Of a stretch of DNA of 64,000 bases, positions 11,638 to 51,751 are shown one piece after another (the stretch's first letter is position 1; every line of letters begins with the position of its first letter). Position numbers and translations under genes: made by a program. The stretch is taken from NCBI GenBank assembly GCA_027452025.1, contig DAIDHI010000080.1:58-64057 (forward strand). The letters run 5' to 3'. The DNA comes from Elusimicrobiota bacterium (lineage in GTDB: Bacteria; Elusimicrobiota; Elusimicrobia; UBA1565; UBA9628). The notes under the pieces were generated by a model, which was not told where the DNA came from, did not search any database, and saw only the letters and a list, made by a program, of their open reading frames with translations.

Positions 11638-12396
11638 CTAGATGGCGATGCGAAGGAGGTCGCGCGCCAGGCCGACCCGACGCCGACCGCGCACGAGGGC
11701 GCGCAGCTCGGCCTCCGAGCGTTCCGACAGGTGGGTCAGCAGCCCGCGCCGGCACGCGGACGCGCCAAGAGTCGCCAAGGCCAAGGGAGGCGTCAAATGC
11801 CCGGCCGCGGGCGAAAGAGAGGACAGGGTGCACTCGAGAAGGAAGAGATCGGCCTCGGCCGCGAAATCGGCCAATCCCGGATCGTAGCCGGCGTCTCCGG
11901 AATAAACAAAGCTCTTCCTCTTATACGAGAGCCGGTATGCCAGGGCCGGCGTCGGATGCGGGACCGAGCGCGCCGCGACGCGCCAGTCCGCGCCTCGCGC
12001 GTCGCGGCCGGCAGAGAGTTCCTCGACCTCAAGGCGGTAGCCCCGGGGCGACAGCCAGGGGCGATAGGCGCCGCGCAAATCGTGGAGGAATCGCGCGAAA
12101 TCCCGCGGGCCCCAGAGCCGCAGCCGCCGGCTCCTCGGGCGGGCCTCGTAGCGCAGGAAGAAGAGGAGCGCCGCCAAGTCCCCTACGTGGTCGGGGTGGC
12201 GATGCGAGATGAAGACGTCGGTCACGCGCGCCGGGTCCAGGCCCGCGCGCGCCATCTGCCGGACGGCGCCGAACCCTAGGTCGAAGAGCATGATCCGGCC
12301 GTCCAGCACGACGGCGTTGGCCGCGGCGTTGCGTACCGCAGCTTTCGGCCGCCGCGGCGCGAACGCGCTGCCTGATCCCAAGATGACCAATTCCAT
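11638..12396 (-). CDS. MBL-fold metallo-hydrolase
   Basis: ISHRHPDHVGDL (HxHxDH) and downstream His/Asp ligands. Confidence 0.75.
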   Translation of the reverse strand: MELVILGSGSAFAPRRPKAAVRNAAANAVVLDGRIMLFDLGFGAVRQMARAGLDPARVTDVFISHRHPDHVGDLAALLFFLRYEARPRSRRLRLWGPRDFARFLHDLRGAYRPWLSPRGYRLEVEELSAGRDARGADWRVAARSVPHPTPALAYRLSYKRKSFVYSGDAGYDPGLADFAAEADLFLLECTLSSLSPAAGHLTPPLALATLGASACRRGLLTHLSERSEAELRALVRGRRRVGLARDLLRIAI

Positions 12397-12417
12397 GGGA
12401 CAATGTTAGAATAACAA

Positions 12418-12476
12418 GGTGTCAGACTTTCACTTTTCACTTACCTTTAATAAGTGGAAAGTGAAAGTCTGACACC
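12418..12476. repeat. 59-bp AT-rich near-perfect inverted repeat (23-bp arms, 11-nt spacer) in the divergent intergenic region upstream of acnA
   Basis: GGTGTCAGACTTTCACTTTTCAC ... GTGGAAAGTGAAAGTCTGACACC. One mismatch between the arms. Confidence 0.8.
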
Positions 12477-12518: not shown

Positions 12519-15269
<2,751 letters not shown>

Positions 15270-36389: not shown

Positions 36390-36426
36390 GCGGCCTCTCC
36401 GCTCGCGCGGAGAGGCCGCTCATTTT
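36390..36426 (+). terminator. rho-independent terminator hairpin (shared region with the 3' end of antisense RNase P RNA)
   Basis: GCGGCCTCTCCGC-tcgc-GCGGAGAGGCCGC followed by TCATTTT. Confidence 0.6.
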
Positions 36427-36799
36427 AGGGAGAGCCTGTACCCCGAATTCTGTTCCCCCCTCGCGGAGGGCGAGGATCATTTCTCTGATGCGGCTACCGA
36501 GGAGCCGCCCCGCCTCTCGGCGGGACCGCGCGGGCCGCGCGAGCTCCCACACTGCCTTGCTCCGGACGGGGTTTGCCGTGACGCCGTCCCTCGCGGGACG
36601 GCCGGTGGGCTCTTGCCCCACCTTTTCACCCTTGCACTCCGCACGGTCTGCGGAGTGCGGTTGTTCTCTGTGGCACTTTCCGTCGGCGAAGCGTATGGTC
36701 TTCGCCTCCCCGCCTTTCGACGGGCGTCCTGCCCTGCGGAGTTCGGAAGTTCCTCCCCCCGCGACGCGTCGCGGAAGGCGATCCCCCGGCTCTCCCTAA
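36424..36799 (-). ncRNA. rnpB: RNase P RNA (bacterial type A)
   Basis: Minus-strand sequence has the P1 pairing AGGGAGAGCC / GGCUCUCCCU. It has GGAGGAACUUCCGAACUCCGCAGGGCAGG (P4/P5 region), GGAAAGUGCCACAGAGAACAACCG, AAGGGUGAAAAGGUGGGGCAAGAGCCCACC, CCGUCCGGAGCAAGG and ACAGAAUUCGGGGUA. These are collinear with E. coli M1 RNA conserved regions. Confidence 0.85.
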
Positions 36800-39938: not shown

Positions 39939-41699
39939 ATGTCCCGACGCCGCCGCGCCCCGCTCCTGCTGGCCGCCGCGCTGCTGGGGGCGGGGCCGGC
40001 GTCGGCGAGGACGTCGAGCAGGGCTGCCGCGGTCGAGCAGCTGTGCCCCCGCATCCGCTTCGTAGGCCCGGCGATCGACCTCGACGACGTCGAGAAGCGC
40101 CTGGTCTGCGGAGATCCGAGCCGCCCGGCCTGGAGCCGCATCCCGCTCAACCAGGCCGAGCAGTTCATGCGCGCGTTCCTGCAGAGGCGCGGGCGCAATT
40201 TCCCGACCTTCAAGGCCGTCGACGACACCCTGGAGGTGCGCATCGGGACGCCGACCTACGTGACGAAGATGACGACCACGGGACTGGAGGGCATTTTGGA
40301 CATGAGCAAGCGCCGCCACATCGTCGGCGAGCTCATGACCCCGGCGGAGCTCGACAAGTTCACCAGCGCCGTCAAGTTCGAGCTCCAGAGCCGCGGCTAC
40401 GCCTGCCCCAAGATCAGCGTGACCGGCGACGCCCGCACGGGCGAGGTGCACGCCTCAGTCGATCCCGGGCCGCGCTACACGATGAGCGACATCGCCACGC
40501 CGCCGCCTCCGGGCATCGACCCGGACATCTTCCGCCGCTATTGGGCCTTCGAGCCCAGCCAGCCATTCGACACGCGCCTGCTGTCTTTGACCTCCGACCG
40601 CATCCAGACCGACGCGCTCTTCCTGAGCGCCTATTACGAGGTCGCGTGCACGACCACGGGGCTGCACATCACCCAAAGGGTCGTCGAGGCTCCTCCGCGC
40701 GAGGTGCGCATCGGCGTGGGGGCCGACACCGAAGGCTATCTGCGCGGCCGCGCCGAGTGGAAGCATTCCCGGATAGGCTACCGCGCCAGCTCCATCGACG
40801 TCACGGCCTTCGACTCCTTCCTCGAACAGTCGGTCGACGGCAACATGAAGTACTACCTGCGGCCTTCCGACCGCATCTACCTGATGCCGCGGGTCTTCCT
40901 GCGGCGCGAGAGCTACACTCCCTACGAAGCCGCCCACTCCGAGGCCGCGATCCTGCCCAGCTGGACTTGGGACGGCACCGACCTCCACGTCGAGACGCGC
41001 GGCGGCCCGGGCATCGAATATTTCAACACCTTGCGCGGCGAGGGCCCGATCGACGACAAGTTCCTCAGCTTCGACACTCAGGCCAAGGTGATGTCGCACC
41101 TCTACGAATATTACGAGCGCGACCCGCGCGAAGGCTGGACGGCCTCGTTCCAATCCAAGTCCCGCGTCTCCGGAGCTTATTCCGACCTGACGGCGCACAT
41201 GATGCGCGTCGACGAGGAGGATCTCTGGAACCTCGGGCGCTACAGCCCGCCGCTGGCCGTCCTGGCGATCCGAGGCTTTGCCGGCACCACCTGGCTCTCC
41301 GACCCCTCTCTGGCCTTCACCAAGCTCCCGCCGAGCATGCGCTTCTTCATGGGCGGCGACGCTAATTTCCGCGGAGCCCCGCTCATGGAGCTGCCCAACG
41401 ACGCCGGCGGGTTTTTGACGGCCGTCTATCAAGGCGTCGAGCTGCGCGCGGGCGACCTCCTTCCCTACGGGCTGCAGCCGCTCGTCTTCATGGACGGCGC
41501 GATGGGAGGCGAGAGCGCCTTCCACCTCGACCCCGCCGTCTACTGGGCTCCGGGAGCGGGCCTGCGCTGGGCGCTGCCCTTCGGCTCCATGCGCGCCACG
41601 ATCGCGCGGGGCCTGACCTGGGCGCGAGGCCAGCAGACCCTGCCGACCTTGAATCTGCCTCGCTGGCAGTTCTTCTTCACGTTCGGACAGGAATTCTGA
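39939..41699 (+). CDS. Omp85-family outer-membrane protein (TamA-like)
   Basis: Signal peptide. POTRA-like N-terminal region. C-terminal beta-barrel ending FFFTFGQEF. Confidence 0.6.
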   Translation: MSRRRRAPLLLAAALLGAGPASARTSSRAAAVEQLCPRIRFVGPAIDLDDVEKRLVCGDPSRPAWSRIPLNQAEQFMRAFLQRRGRNFPTFKAVDDTLEVRIGTPTYVTKMTTTGLEGILDMSKRRHIVGELMTPAELDKFTSAVKFELQSRGYACPKISVTGDARTGEVHASVDPGPRYTMSDIATPPPPGIDPDIFRRYWAFEPSQPFDTRLLSLTSDRIQTDALFLSAYYEVACTTTGLHITQRVVEAPPREVRIGVGADTEGYLRGRAEWKHSRIGYRASSIDVTAFDSFLEQSVDGNMKYYLRPSDRIYLMPRVFLRRESYTPYEAAHSEAAILPSWTWDGTDLHVETRGGPGIEYFNTLRGEGPIDDKFLSFDTQAKVMSHLYEYYERDPREGWTASFQSKSRVSGAYSDLTAHMMRVDEEDLWNLGRYSPPLAVLAIRGFAGTTWLSDPSLAFTKLPPSMRFFMGGDANFRGAPLMELPNDAGGFLTAVYQGVELRAGDLLPYGLQPLVFMDGAMGGESAFHLDPAVYWAPGAGLRWALPFGSMRATIARGLTWARGQQTLPTLNLPRWQFFFTFGQEF

Positions 41700-44074
41700 T
41701 GCGTACCCTGCGGCGCGCCGTCAAACGGCTCCTCCAGGCCCTCGGCCTGCTCCTCACGCTGACGACCGCGCTCCTGACGGCCTTCATCGCCCGTCCCGAA
41801 TGGTTCCTGACCTCGAGTCGCGTCGAGAGGCTGGCGCGCCGGTTCGGCAAGGCCTATCAGCCCTCATGGACGAGCTTCCATTTCGAGATCGTGTCCCGAA
41901 GCTTCCGCGACAAGACCGTCTCGGTCCGCGTGAAAGACCTGCGCTTCGACGATCCCGCCGCCGGCGCTTCCGGACTGGCGTCCACGGCGGCCGTGACCGT
42001 CAGCTTCCGCCTCGGCCTGCGTCCCCTCGTCCGGCTGACCAGGCTGGACTCGGCCGAGCTCGACGCGCGCTGGCTGCGGCTCGACGAGCGCGGGCCGCGC
42101 CCGGCCAAGCCGGCCAGGAAGACGGTGGAGCGCTACGTCTCGCTGCCGAACCTCCTGCCCGGGCCGGCGCGCTCGATGACATTCGGGGTCGTCGACCTGC
42201 GCGCCCGGCGATTCGTGATCCTGCGCTCGAGCGGCTCTCTGTCCGGCTCGGCCTGGGCGCGCTATCCGTGGCGCAGCCGGCCGCAGCTCGACGCCGCCTC
42301 CGACGTGATCTCGCGCTCGGCCGCGGGCGCCTCGCGCTGGCGCGCCCGCGCGGCCGTGACCTCCGACGTGTTCCAGAAAGGCGGCCTGACCTATCTCCAG
42401 GCGCGGGCGGACTTGGCGGGCCCGGGCTCGACGGCCAAGCTGAGCGCGCGGGTGTTCCAATCCGGGCCCCGGCAGACCCGGCTTCGCGCCGTCGCCGGCG
42501 GCCGCATCGGCGGGCACGCTTTCACCGCCGACCTAGCCGGCTCGCAGACGCCCGCGGCCTACGCCCTGCGCGGCTCGCTGGCCGTACTCGCTCCGACGCC
42601 GCGGCTGCGCTCCGTCTCCTTGGACGACTGCCGCCTCGACGTTCCCCTGCGCAAGGGCTCCCTTTCGCCGCGCGCGCTGACGCTCGATTGCCAGCTCGCG
42701 CTGGCGCCCGCGCCGTTCGGCCCGTCGCCCAACGCCGTTCCCAAGACCATCGCGGGGCGCGTCGCCTTCGACGCCGACGTCAAGAGCTACACGCTGGAGG
42801 GCAAGCCCGACGCCTTCGACGCCCGCCTAGACGCTGCGCTTGGGCCGATGCGCGGCTGGTACCGGTTCGACGCGCGCCTCCAGCTCCAGGCCTCCGGACG
42901 GCTCGCCGCGCTGCCCGCGAGCCTCAAAGCCCGGCACCGCTTGAGCGCCCGCCTGCGCGTGGCGCGCTTCCGCGACCTGGTCGAGTTCCTCAAAGGCACG
43001 AAATACGCCATTCCAGCCCCGCTCAACGTCCTGGAAGGCTCGATCGGCGCCTCGTTTTACGGCTCGGGCGACGCGCGCAGCCCCTCCCAGACGTTCGATT
43101 ATCGCGCGGGAACGGACCTCTCGGGCGCCGGCGAGCGCCTGAAGGTCTCCGTCGCCGGCTCGCTGCTCGCCAAGCGGCTCTTCGAGCCCTCGCGCTCCTT
43201 TTTTGACCGCACCGACGTCGACTTGGAGGAGGTGTCCGTCGAGCTGCCCTATCTGCGCCTGGGGCCGCTGCCGAAGGTGTTCGTCGACAGCCGGATCCAG
43301 ACCGGAGCCGCTTCGCGGCGCGCGGTCGACCCCGTGCCCCCCCCGCCCGCCGAGGCCGTGGCGGGCTCCACCGCGTCCGTGGTCGACTACGACGCGCGCG
43401 TGTTCACCTCCTCGCCCGCCGTGGTCCGGTCCAATCTCGCCAAGACGCCGGTCCCGGTCTCTCTGCGCCTGCGCGCCAGGCCGCAAGCCGTGAGCGGCAC
43501 GATCGCGATCGGGCGCTTCGAAGCCGAGCTGTTCCGGCAGCTGGCCGTCATCGACCACGTGATCCTGACCGAGCACCCGGGCGCCTCGGCGCTCGGCCTC
43601 GACGGCCTCGTCACCTATAAGCGTCCGGAAGCGACGATCTACATCCATCTGCTCGGCAGCACCTCCAAGCCGCAGGTCGCCCTGTCCAGCGACCCTCCGA
43701 TGACGCGAGACGAGATCCTGGCCCTGCTGCTCTACGGCCAGCCGCCGGACGCGCTCGACGAAGATCAGCGCAGCAACGTCGGAAACGCCTCCAACGGCAT
43801 GGCCGCGGGAGCCTTCGGCCTGGCCTCGCTCTATCTCTTCGCCTCCACGCCCGTGGAATACGTGGGCTACGATCCGGCGACGCAGACCTACGCCGTGCGG
43901 CTGAAGCTTCCGGGCGGGGTGCACATGCAGCTGGGCTCCTCGGCGCTGCAGGAATCGCGCACGCTCACGCTGCGCAAGCGGCTGGCGCCCCATTGGCAGA
44001 TCGAGACGCAAGCCGCGACCAGCCAGCAAGGCAACGCCATCACCACGTTCCTCGAGTGGTTCGAACGCTACTAG
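41699..44074 (+). CDS. TamB-like translocation and assembly module protein (DUF490 C-terminus)
   Basis: N-terminal TM anchor, long beta-rich body. C-terminal DEILALLLYGQPP...TFLEWFERY resembling the TamB DUF490 end. Start overlaps the TamA stop. Confidence 0.6.
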   Translation: MRTLRRAVKRLLQALGLLLTLTTALLTAFIARPEWFLTSSRVERLARRFGKAYQPSWTSFHFEIVSRSFRDKTVSVRVKDLRFDDPAAGASGLASTAAVTVSFRLGLRPLVRLTRLDSAELDARWLRLDERGPRPAKPARKTVERYVSLPNLLPGPARSMTFGVVDLRARRFVILRSSGSLSGSAWARYPWRSRPQLDAASDVISRSAAGASRWRARAAVTSDVFQKGGLTYLQARADLAGPGSTAKLSARVFQSGPRQTRLRAVAGGRIGGHAFTADLAGSQTPAAYALRGSLAVLAPTPRLRSVSLDDCRLDVPLRKGSLSPRALTLDCQLALAPAPFGPSPNAVPKTIAGRVAFDADVKSYTLEGKPDAFDARLDAALGPMRGWYRFDARLQLQASGRLAALPASLKARHRLSARLRVARFRDLVEFLKGTKYAIPAPLNVLEGSIGASFYGSGDARSPSQTFDYRAGTDLSGAGERLKVSVAGSLLAKRLFEPSRSFFDRTDVDLEEVSVELPYLRLGPLPKVFVDSRIQTGAASRRAVDPVPPPPAEAVAGSTASVVDYDARVFTSSPAVVRSNLAKTPVPVSLRLRARPQAVSGTIAIGRFEAELFRQLAVIDHVILTEHPGASALGLDGLVTYKRPEATIYIHLLGSTSKPQVALSSDPPMTRDEILALLLYGQPPDALDEDQRSNVGNASNGMAAGAFGLASLYLFASTPVEYVGYDPATQTYAVRLKLPGGVHMQLGSSALQESRTLTLRKRLAPHWQIETQAATSQQGNAITTFLEWFERY

Positions 44075-44086
44075 GCGGAGCTTGAT

Positions 44087-44155
44087 GGTGTCAGGCCTTG
44101 AATTGTTTGACTTGTTTGCCGAGCAAACAAGTCAAACAATTCAAGGCCTGACACC
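44087..44155. repeat. 69-bp perfect AT-rich palindrome (32-bp arms, 5-nt loop) between convergent genes; likely bidirectional terminator / REP- or MITE-like element
   Basis: GGTGTCAGGCCTTGAATTGTTTGACTTGTTTG-ccgag-CAAACAAGTCAAACAATTCAAGGCCTGACACC. Shares GGTGTCAG/CTGACACC termini with the repeat at 12418-12476. Confidence 0.8.
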
Positions 44156-44163
44156 AAGCCCAG

Positions 44164-44679
44164 TCAGTAGCCGCCGGGAACGGCGCCGTAGGGACCCGGC
44201 ACGGACGGAGCCGGCCGCTCGGGCGGGATCGCCGGCTCCGCTTCCTCGCGGGAAAGCTCCGACCAGAATTGCCGGATCTCGCGGGGCAAGATGAACCGGA
44301 TCGCCCGTACTTCGCCCGGGGATAAATGCTCCTCGACGACCCGGAACACCGCCCGCGCCGCGAGCGCGCCGTCGAGACCCGGCTGGCCGCGCAGGGCGTC
44401 GCCGATCGCGCGCAAGAACCGGTCCTTGGTGTAGCGCCGGGGCTTGCGCCGCGGCTTCCAGCCGTCGAAAAAGACGCCTCGCACGAGCAGCGGCATCTGG
44501 GACGAGAACTTGGCCGTCTCGTCGACGGGCATGCAGTCGCGCAGCGCATGCAGCACGGCCCTCAGCGCCGAATAGGCGCGGGGCCGGTCCGTCGAGTGGA
44601 TCTCCGACTCCACCCCCTTGATCCAGAGGTTCGTCTTTTGGAGCGACGAATCGAAGACGTCGATGTTCCTCACCGCCAT
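44164..44679 (-). CDS. DUF2267 domain protein
   Basis: Two-helix-bundle repeat pattern typical of DUF2267 (YALRAVLHALRD ... FLRAIGDALRG). Confidence 0.6.
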   Translation of the reverse strand: MAVRNIDVFDSSLQKTNLWIKGVESEIHSTDRPRAYSALRAVLHALRDCMPVDETAKFSSQMPLLVRGVFFDGWKPRRKPRRYTKDRFLRAIGDALRGQPGLDGALAARAVFRVVEEHLSPGEVRAIRFILPREIRQFWSELSREEAEPAIPPERPAPSVPGPYGAVPGGY

Positions 44680-51676: not shown

Positions 51677-51751
51677 TGGTGGGCAGTATAGGATTCGAAC
51701 CTATGACCCCTGTCGTGTGAGGACAGTGCTCTACCGCTGAGCTAACTGCCC
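51677..51751 (-). tRNA. tRNA-Val (anticodon CAC)
   Basis: Minus strand GGGCAGUUAGCUCAGCGGUAGAGCACUGUCCUCACACGACAGGGGGUCAUAGGUUCGAAUCCUAUACUGCCCACCA. 7-bp acceptor stem, GGUUCGAAUCC T-arm, anticodon loop CUCACAC, encoded CCA. Confidence 0.9.

Follow-up and report, generated by a model that had tools for sequence, protein, structure and literature searches.

The locus examined here raises the question of what a long, perfectly paired palindrome between the 3' ends of two convergent genes is, and to what kind of element it belongs. It lies in a 64-kb stretch of Elusimicrobiota DNA (64,000 nucleotides, the whole of which we term the window), and we refer to it as element B. An initial annotation, made from the sequence, had placed it between convergent tamB-like and DUF2267 genes, and Pfam searches identify the same neighbors: a TamB-domain gene (41699..44074, + strand; PF04357, E = 5e-9) whose stop codon lies 11 nt before B, and a convergent DUF2267 gene (44164..44679, - strand; PF10025, E = 5.9e-29) whose stop codon lies 7 nt from B. 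The TamB-domain gene (41699-44074) is directly preceded by an Omp85-domain gene (39939-41699), and this TamA/TamB-like pair points to a host of the diderm type; the window further encodes a bacterial class A RNase P RNA (36423-36797, - strand; 182 bits) and a tRNA gene (51680-51751, - strand). The nearest relatives of the DUF2267 gene were sampled in metagenomes of farmland and forest soil, and Elusimicrobia is the name attached to one homologue. At two relatives of the DUF2267 locus (L120 and L130), a junction of 3 to 12 nt follows the DUF2267 gene and holds no element; the gene order differs there, so that neither is a valid empty site for B.

An inverted-repeat search resolved B into two 34-nt arms (44086-44119 and 44123-44156) that are 100% complementary and separated by a 3-nt loop, making the palindrome 71 bp long. 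The perfect pairing of the "perfect 69-bp palindrome" first described thus stands, while its length has to be extended by 1 base on each side; the 32-bp arms and 5-nt loop ascribed to it do not hold, as those 69 bp divide into 33+3+33 and not 32+5+32. The left arm (44086..44119, + strand) carries the tip GGTGTCAG at 44087-44094, followed by GCCT and then by subterminal direct repeats (TTGAATTGT, TTGACTTGT, and TTG, with a period of 9; 44098..44118, + strand), recognized from a 7-nt exact direct repeat at an offset of 9 and mirrored in the right arm (44123..44156, - strand), in which the inverted tip CTGACACC occupies 44148-44155. The GC content of B is 43 to 48% versus 68% for the whole window, and the element is flanked by ttgat on the left and aagcc on the right. 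Folded as a single strand, it reaches -63 kcal/mol as RNA (z = -15.8) and -43.5 kcal/mol as DNA, far better than shuffled sequences.

A window-wide search for long, near-perfect hairpins returned only two, B and a second one that we term element A (12418..12476), in which arms of 26 nt, paired except for one T.G mismatch, enclose a 7-nt loop. It sits between a divergent MBL-fold gene (11638-12396, - strand) and an aconitase gene (12519-15269, + strand), is flanked by aacaa and gatcg, and as a single strand likewise folds far better than shuffles (RNA, -42.4 kcal/mol; DNA, -26.5 kcal/mol). Its subterminal direct repeats, CTTTCACT and CTTTTCACT, have a period of 7 (12427..12441, + strand; 8-nt direct repeat at an offset of 7). 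A consensus scan near A found one sigma-70-like site, where 0.1 was expected, consisting of ATGACC, an 18-nt spacer, and the extended -10 element TG-TAGAAT (12383..12412, + strand; a pattern match only) and ending 6 nt before the hairpin; given this candidate promoter, the aconitase transcript would start at or close to hairpin A. Both elements start with GGTGTCAG(A/G)C and end with G(T/C)CTGACACC, that is, they have 10-nt termini in common (GGTGTCAGRC and GYCTGACACC), and the four occurrences that the 8-mer GGTGTCAG has in the window all fall within the arms of A and B (shuffle mean, 1.09). The shared termini and variable cores initially reported for the pair are thereby confirmed. Rfam has no family match at the elements in the window, nor in 18 related loci.

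We then scanned a 596-Gb collection of bacterial and archaeal genomes, one genome per species, with the terminal-motif pair GGTGTCAGRC-N25-55-GYCTGACACC. At least 119 loci match it, where about 70 chance matches, not palindromic inside, would by our estimate be expected over the whole collection; the conservation of the 10-nt termini among these matches is partly forced by the search pattern. Between the forced termini, about 45 among the matches listed reach a self-complementarity of 80% or more, their cores being mutually unrelated, and the near-perfect hairpins with these termini and different cores come, among the matches listed, from about ten phyla. Their sources include Elusimicrobia (L019, L038, and L045), Acidobacteriota (L009 and L055), Geobacter (L048), Bacillaceae (L065 and L118), Lachnospiraceae, Anaerocolumna (L044 and L047), Oxalobacteraceae, Bordetella, Actinomycetota, Omnitrophota, Bacteroidota (Saprospiraceae), and Nitrospirae; the copy in one Elusimicrobia metagenome-assembled genome (L045) has an A-like core at a nonorthologous locus. 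The prospect, raised in the initial annotation, that the genomes would yield no further copies falls away, since these termini bound near-perfect hairpins in many of them. Only seven pattern matches were found in viral contigs, mostly not palindromic, and so the family is not phage borne. An all-against-all BLAST comparison of 3,548 open reading frames from the at least 119 loci listed revealed no recurrent neighbor gene, only ABC transporters, LysR regulators, and histidine kinases.

Among the matches listed, the hairpin flanks often extend the palindrome, and about 80% of the half-sites run on as a 13-bp palindrome, GGTGTCAGRCACC, which in some genomes is arrayed, in alternating orientation, immediately downstream of stop codons. 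Such arrays of GGTGTCWGACACC were seen in Gaiellales/Thermoleophilia, Bordetella, and Achromobacter (L017:7816-8000, L040:2331-2470, L053, L108, L027, and L073); two of these loci, L017 and L040, are 81% identical around metK and have arrays at the same place, with diverged spacers and intact 13-mers. The plasmid collection contained no match to an Achromobacter array, and a literature string search with the 13-mers and 10-mers recovered only unrelated primer matches. A second box, GGACAWWT, situated about 6 nt inside the 13-mer, is common to the hairpins of two distant groups, the Bacillaceae (L065:7483, L118:7244, L013, L016, L026, and L032) and the Oxalobacteraceae (L002, L015, L095, and L106); in the Bacillaceae, T-runs follow these hairpins in the manner of intrinsic terminators. 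A Treponema sp. metagenome-assembled genome (L080:2234-4577) contains about 77 copies of a 28-bp tandem repeat, GGCGGCGTCTGACACCAGCGGCGGGTAA, every one of which includes the CTGACACC tip; because 28 is not divisible by three, the repeat is probably noncoding.

The lead to a partner enzyme was a 40-kb Anaerocolumna contig (L047) that holds five hairpins, surrounded by ordinary genes, and a frameshifted IS200-like Y1 gene. We rejected this gene itself as the partner: it is of a short class, and its close homologues adjoin comM-dprA and lack the GGTGTCAG motif. In several Clostridia (L132 to L135; genes at about 10001 to 13222 of L132 and L133), a 194-aa Y1_Tnp gene lies just upstream of comM and dprA in conserved synteny, and neither flanking inverted repeats nor the GGTGTCAG motif was found at these four loci; next to transformation genes, it looks like a domesticated Y1 enzyme.

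With the Y1 protein of the Anaerocolumna contig as a probe, an alignment of 30 homologues led to 80 metagenome loci, retrieved by protein similarity and patterns alone. In these loci, GGTGTCAG recurs 50 to 90 nt upstream of the gene and, with unvarying spacing, CTGACACC about 410 nt past the matched part. Of the 53 genes that are 285 aa or longer, 46 stand between inverted repeats of 15 nt or more, and in 42 of the 53 these have a GTCA tip, reading (A/T)GG(G/T)GTCAG(G/A)(C/T)(C/T)T; genes shorter than 285 aa have GTCA-tipped flanking repeats in none of 27. The longer genes define a unit, with a median length of 1,032 bp, in which a left inverted repeat, a gene of 300 to 345 aa, and a right inverted repeat follow one another; the terminal inverted repeats (TIRs) measure 17 to 32 bp and start with GG(G/T)GTCAG, the left one beginning 25 to 105 nt before the start codon and the right one ending 3 to 25 nt after the stop codon or overlapping or containing it. 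The encoded proteins combine an N-terminal Pfam Y1_Tnp domain with a weak C-terminal match to Bac_DnaA_C/HTH, and their best NCBIfam model is the REP-associated tyrosine transposase (77 to 86 bits versus a cutoff of 80). The flanks of the gene-bearing units are A/T rich. Target-site duplications, for which the initial annotation had suggested a check around the copies, surround neither A nor B, none of the other hairpins among the matches listed, and none of 41 gene-bearing units; their absence fits HUH/Y1 elements and not classical DDE-type miniature inverted-repeat transposable elements (MITEs).

RAYT-like genes that have long TIRs, and not REPs, on either side are on record: Di Nocera et al. 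2013 (PMC3733652), in the portions available, name them TIRYTs and the units TIRtrons, note a shared TIR motif GGGGWSAS, describe the TIR repeat families as moderately abundant and occurring as singles, dimers, or clusters, and state that TIRYT gene and repeats are not always together. The available portions of Quentin et al. 2018 (PMC6006769) assign most TIRYTs to TnpA-Y1 subclass 2.1, which has members with Bac_DnaA_C or HTH tails, and describe the TIR motif as unlike a DnaA box. Those same portions of PMC3733652 and PMC6006769 report no TIRYT biochemistry and make no mention of GGTGTCAG hairpins such as those that we find over about ten phyla (among the matches listed) or of subterminal direct repeats. 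The loci recovered here permit an operational definition of the TIRYT element as a unit of about 1.03 kb with a Y1+HTH gene, TIRs starting with GG(G/T)GTCAG, subterminal direct repeats, and no target duplication.

The window tip departs from GGGGWSAS by having T for G at position 3, GGTGTCAG fitting that motif at seven of eight positions. A T at this position (GGTG) occurs at 8 of the 41 gene-bearing units, and GGTG and GGGG tips alternate between close relatives (e.g., L179 versus L183, whose proteins are 78% identical), so that the GGTG of the window is an ordinary variant. Each of two contigs, L144 and L182, contains both a gene-bearing unit and a short dimeric hairpin with matching arms. 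Solo dimers are absent from two 20-kb TIRYT-gene loci (L216 and L217; 10 kb on each side), which means that TIRYT gene and repeats do not always coexist. In the window, tblastn found no TIRYT gene within the 64 kb, so that a cognate enzyme, or mobilization in trans, from elsewhere in the genome has to be assumed; the ends expected of a cognate unit are GGTGTCAGGCCTTGAA... or GGTGTCAGACTTTCAC....

Several features of the gene-bearing loci are recorded here in their own right. One unit (L216:9900-11000) lies between microsatellite-like runs, (GACCGT)n on the left and (GTTTTC)n on the right. Partial duplications of the left tip, arranged in tandem (e.g., ggaaagtGGTGTCACaggaaagtGGTGTCAG), lie close by the left TIR on its outer side at L205:~2289-2320, L212:~335-365, L217:9939-9965, and L186:~1340-1400. 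Many contigs with TIRYT genes match the unit in length, at only about 0.95 to 1.1 kb, and among the protein clusters P0173-P0292, formed at 90% identity, some comprise up to 206 sequences; this suggests multicopy elements that break metagenome assemblies.

Whether the window arms are TIRs of this type was judged with a weight matrix built from 80 repeat ends, all protein retrieved, the window playing no part in its derivation. Of about 128,000 window positions, the four that score highest are the arms of A and B: with the 12-nt matrix, the arms score 17.2 to 18.0 bits (B, 17.2; A, 18.0) and the next site scores 11.3, and with the 25-nt matrix, the arms score 21.5 to 31.4 bits (B, 21.5; A, 31.4 and 23.5) and the next site scores 8.5. 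Subterminal direct repeats of at least 6 nt with a period of 7 to 9, as in both elements, are found inside the tip in 24% of the TIRs versus 3% of shuffles, and one TIR from a gene-bearing locus (L203), GGGGTCAGCCCTTGAATGTTGAAT, closely resembles GGTGTCAGGCCTTGAATTGTTTGAC of B. By arm pairing, folding, and the matrix, B (44086..44156) reads as a head-to-head dimer of TIRYT-type TIRs, with the left arm as one TIR copy and the right arm as a second, inverted copy.

We therefore regard it as likely, on this sequence evidence, that A and B are gene-less miniature derivatives, in the form of TIR dimers, of a TIRYT element (TIRtron). In sequence terms, they are members of the TIRYT class, a known but little-studied family, and not a new kind of element. 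The proposal of a single family of small, nonautonomous palindromic elements, conserved at the termini and variable in the core, gains support from the hairpins in many unrelated genomes and from the identity of their termini with the TIRs of a transposase gene. Of the label "REP/MITE-like," the small palindromic family survives, refined to a TIRYT TIR dimer, and the classical REP does not.

The chemistry to be expected of such elements can be sketched by analogy. The TnpA of IS200/IS605 and the TnpA-REP of Escherichia coli have an established single-strand "peel and paste" HUH chemistry. The parent TIRtron would be a unit of about 1 kb encoding a RAYT-like Y1 (HUH) transposase with a C-terminal DnaA-C-like HTH between TIRs of 17 to 32 bp, and A and B would each be two of its ends joined head to head with nothing between, a "dimer" form analogous to REPINs or MITEs; so joined, the ends make each element a palindrome. 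In a single-stranded state, e.g., on the lagging-strand template, the arms would pair and place the conserved tip duplex at the base of the hairpin. The TIRYT enzyme, supplied in trans, may then recognize the paired-arm hairpin and cut and rejoin single strands at the tips, so that the element would be moved or copied without a target duplication. The subterminal 7- to 9-bp direct repeats, which vary between lineages, are a likely address for the HTH domain. Once intergenic, B would probably be cotranscribed as a very stable RNA hairpin and could buffer the 3' ends of the tamB-like and DUF2267 mRNAs.

The first alternative is a classical REP or REPIN of the kind that a canonical RAYT (TnpA-REP) mobilizes in E. 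coli or Pseudomonas. It would account for an extragenic palindrome at gene ends, for the BIME-like alternating arrays of related sequences, and for the best NCBIfam match of the linked enzyme, the REP-associated tyrosine transposase model. We consider it improbable nonetheless. The GTAG (or CGTC) tag of classical REPs is present at neither end of A or B, and in the absence of GTAG the family is not classical REP; the conserved part is fully base paired and leaves no single-stranded "foot"; and short RAYT-like genes lack repeats of the kind seen here. The linked genes are, moreover, of the long HTH class with plain TIRs, which PMC3733652 and PMC6006769, in the portions available, keep apart from REPtrons.

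The position of B exactly between two convergent stop codons, together with an RNA stability of -63 kcal/mol on either strand, invites the reading that it is a bidirectional terminator or RNA-stabilizing hairpin that evolved locally and has no mobile origin, its termini being shared with A by coincidence or convergence; related hairpins in low-GC genomes (L004, L065, L118, and L044) have A-runs and T-runs on their flanks, in the way of intrinsic terminators. A terminator-signature check of both strands of B found no T-tract after the full stem; the matches that it did find were internal and attributable to chance. A stands in a divergent promoter region and not at a gene end. The bidirectional-terminator position suggested initially is unsupported, and the resemblance of the arms to transposon TIRs extends over 25 nt and far exceeds chance. 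A purely local origin is thus very improbable, although a terminator role could exist as a secondary, exapted effect.

Another conceivable source is an insertion sequence with a DDE transposase, from which a MITE would descend that moves as double-stranded DNA by cut and paste. Such a MITE would share with A and B the TIRs, the small size, and the lack of coding capacity, and the TG...CA ends that many DDE elements have are similar to TGTCAG...CTGACA. Such an origin has only a slight chance of being correct: besides the lack of direct target duplications at A, at B, at the other hairpins, and at the 41 gene-bearing units, a Y1 HUH enzyme is the only gene found between ends of this type, and no DDE gene recurs beside the elements among the at least 119 loci listed. 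That the arms are an inverted pair of sites bound by a cellular protein, as in an operator or the nucleoid, and selected on double-stranded DNA, as the dimer-site appearance of the 13-bp palindrome GGTGTCWGACACC and the promoter-region location of A might intimate, is most unlikely, as the half-site spacing varies from 25 to 55 nt, the cores are palindromic though their sequences differ, the arrays reach tens of units, and the same ends flank a transposase gene.

Taken as a TIRYT-type TIR dimer, the window palindrome would be a passenger repeat and not a dedicated regulatory device, and it should be annotated as such a dimer. Gene-less dimers of TIRYT ends are scattered, among the matches listed, over many phyla, and with them an in vitro test of a hairpin-forming single-strand transposition substrate becomes easy to design. 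The wider pattern, in which an 8-nt tip recurring over about ten phyla (among the matches listed) is combined with variable subterminal repeats and 13-mer arrays, merits specialist attention. More tentatively, and with somewhat less than even likelihood, the hairpins may replicate in the manner of REPINs within a TIRYT system that spans the bacteria and has a recognition code of two parts: the tip GG(G/T)GTCAG, pairing in single-stranded DNA, would be a universal signal for the Y1 domain, and the 7- to 9-bp repeats, varying by lineage, would be addresses for the HTH. In that case, many separate repeat populations could draw on a single conserved chemistry, and the 13-bp GGTGTCWGACACC arrays of Bordetella, Achromobacter, and Gaiellales would find an explanation.

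Among the known systems with which A and B may be compared, an integron attC site was considered and rejected, as the termini GGTGTCAG and CTGACACC are not RYYYAAC ... GTTRRRY, the pairing is perfect with no extrahelical bases, and neither a cassette array nor an integrase is found near B. The Correia/NEMIS, ERIC, and RUP MITEs are similarly small and noncoding, have TIRs, and are often cotranscribed as stable RNA hairpins beside genes; in contrast to A and B, which have no target duplications, they are tied to DDE transposases and to such duplications (e.g., TA). The IS200/IS605 elements (IS608 and ISDra2) share the Y1 HUH catalytic domain, the lack of target duplication, and single-stranded DNA as the expected substrate; they have a subterminal hairpin at each end and no TIRs, whereas in A and B the ends complement each other. 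REPINs and REP-BIMEs with their RAYTs, reportedly the subject of work by Bertels & Rainey in 2011 and by Ton-Hoang et al. in 2012, come closer: a long hairpin arises from two inverted short repeats, mobilization is presumed to be the work of a Y1 transposase present in single copy, and the repeats lie at extragenic gene ends and form alternating arrays. The window elements differ from them in lacking the GTAG tag, in having as their unit a plain TIR instead of a small hairpin, and in their link to an enzyme class with an extra HTH. The best counterpart is provided by the TIR repeats of TIRtrons, with which A and B share the tip motif, the relation to the TIRs of a RAYT-like Y1 gene with a DnaA-C/HTH tail, an intergenic location, and the occurrence as solo singles, dimers, or clusters, A and B being head-to-head dimers in intergenic DNA and clusters being found in other genomes; what sets the window copies apart is the T at position 3 of the tip and their form as perfect or near-perfect head-to-head dimers.
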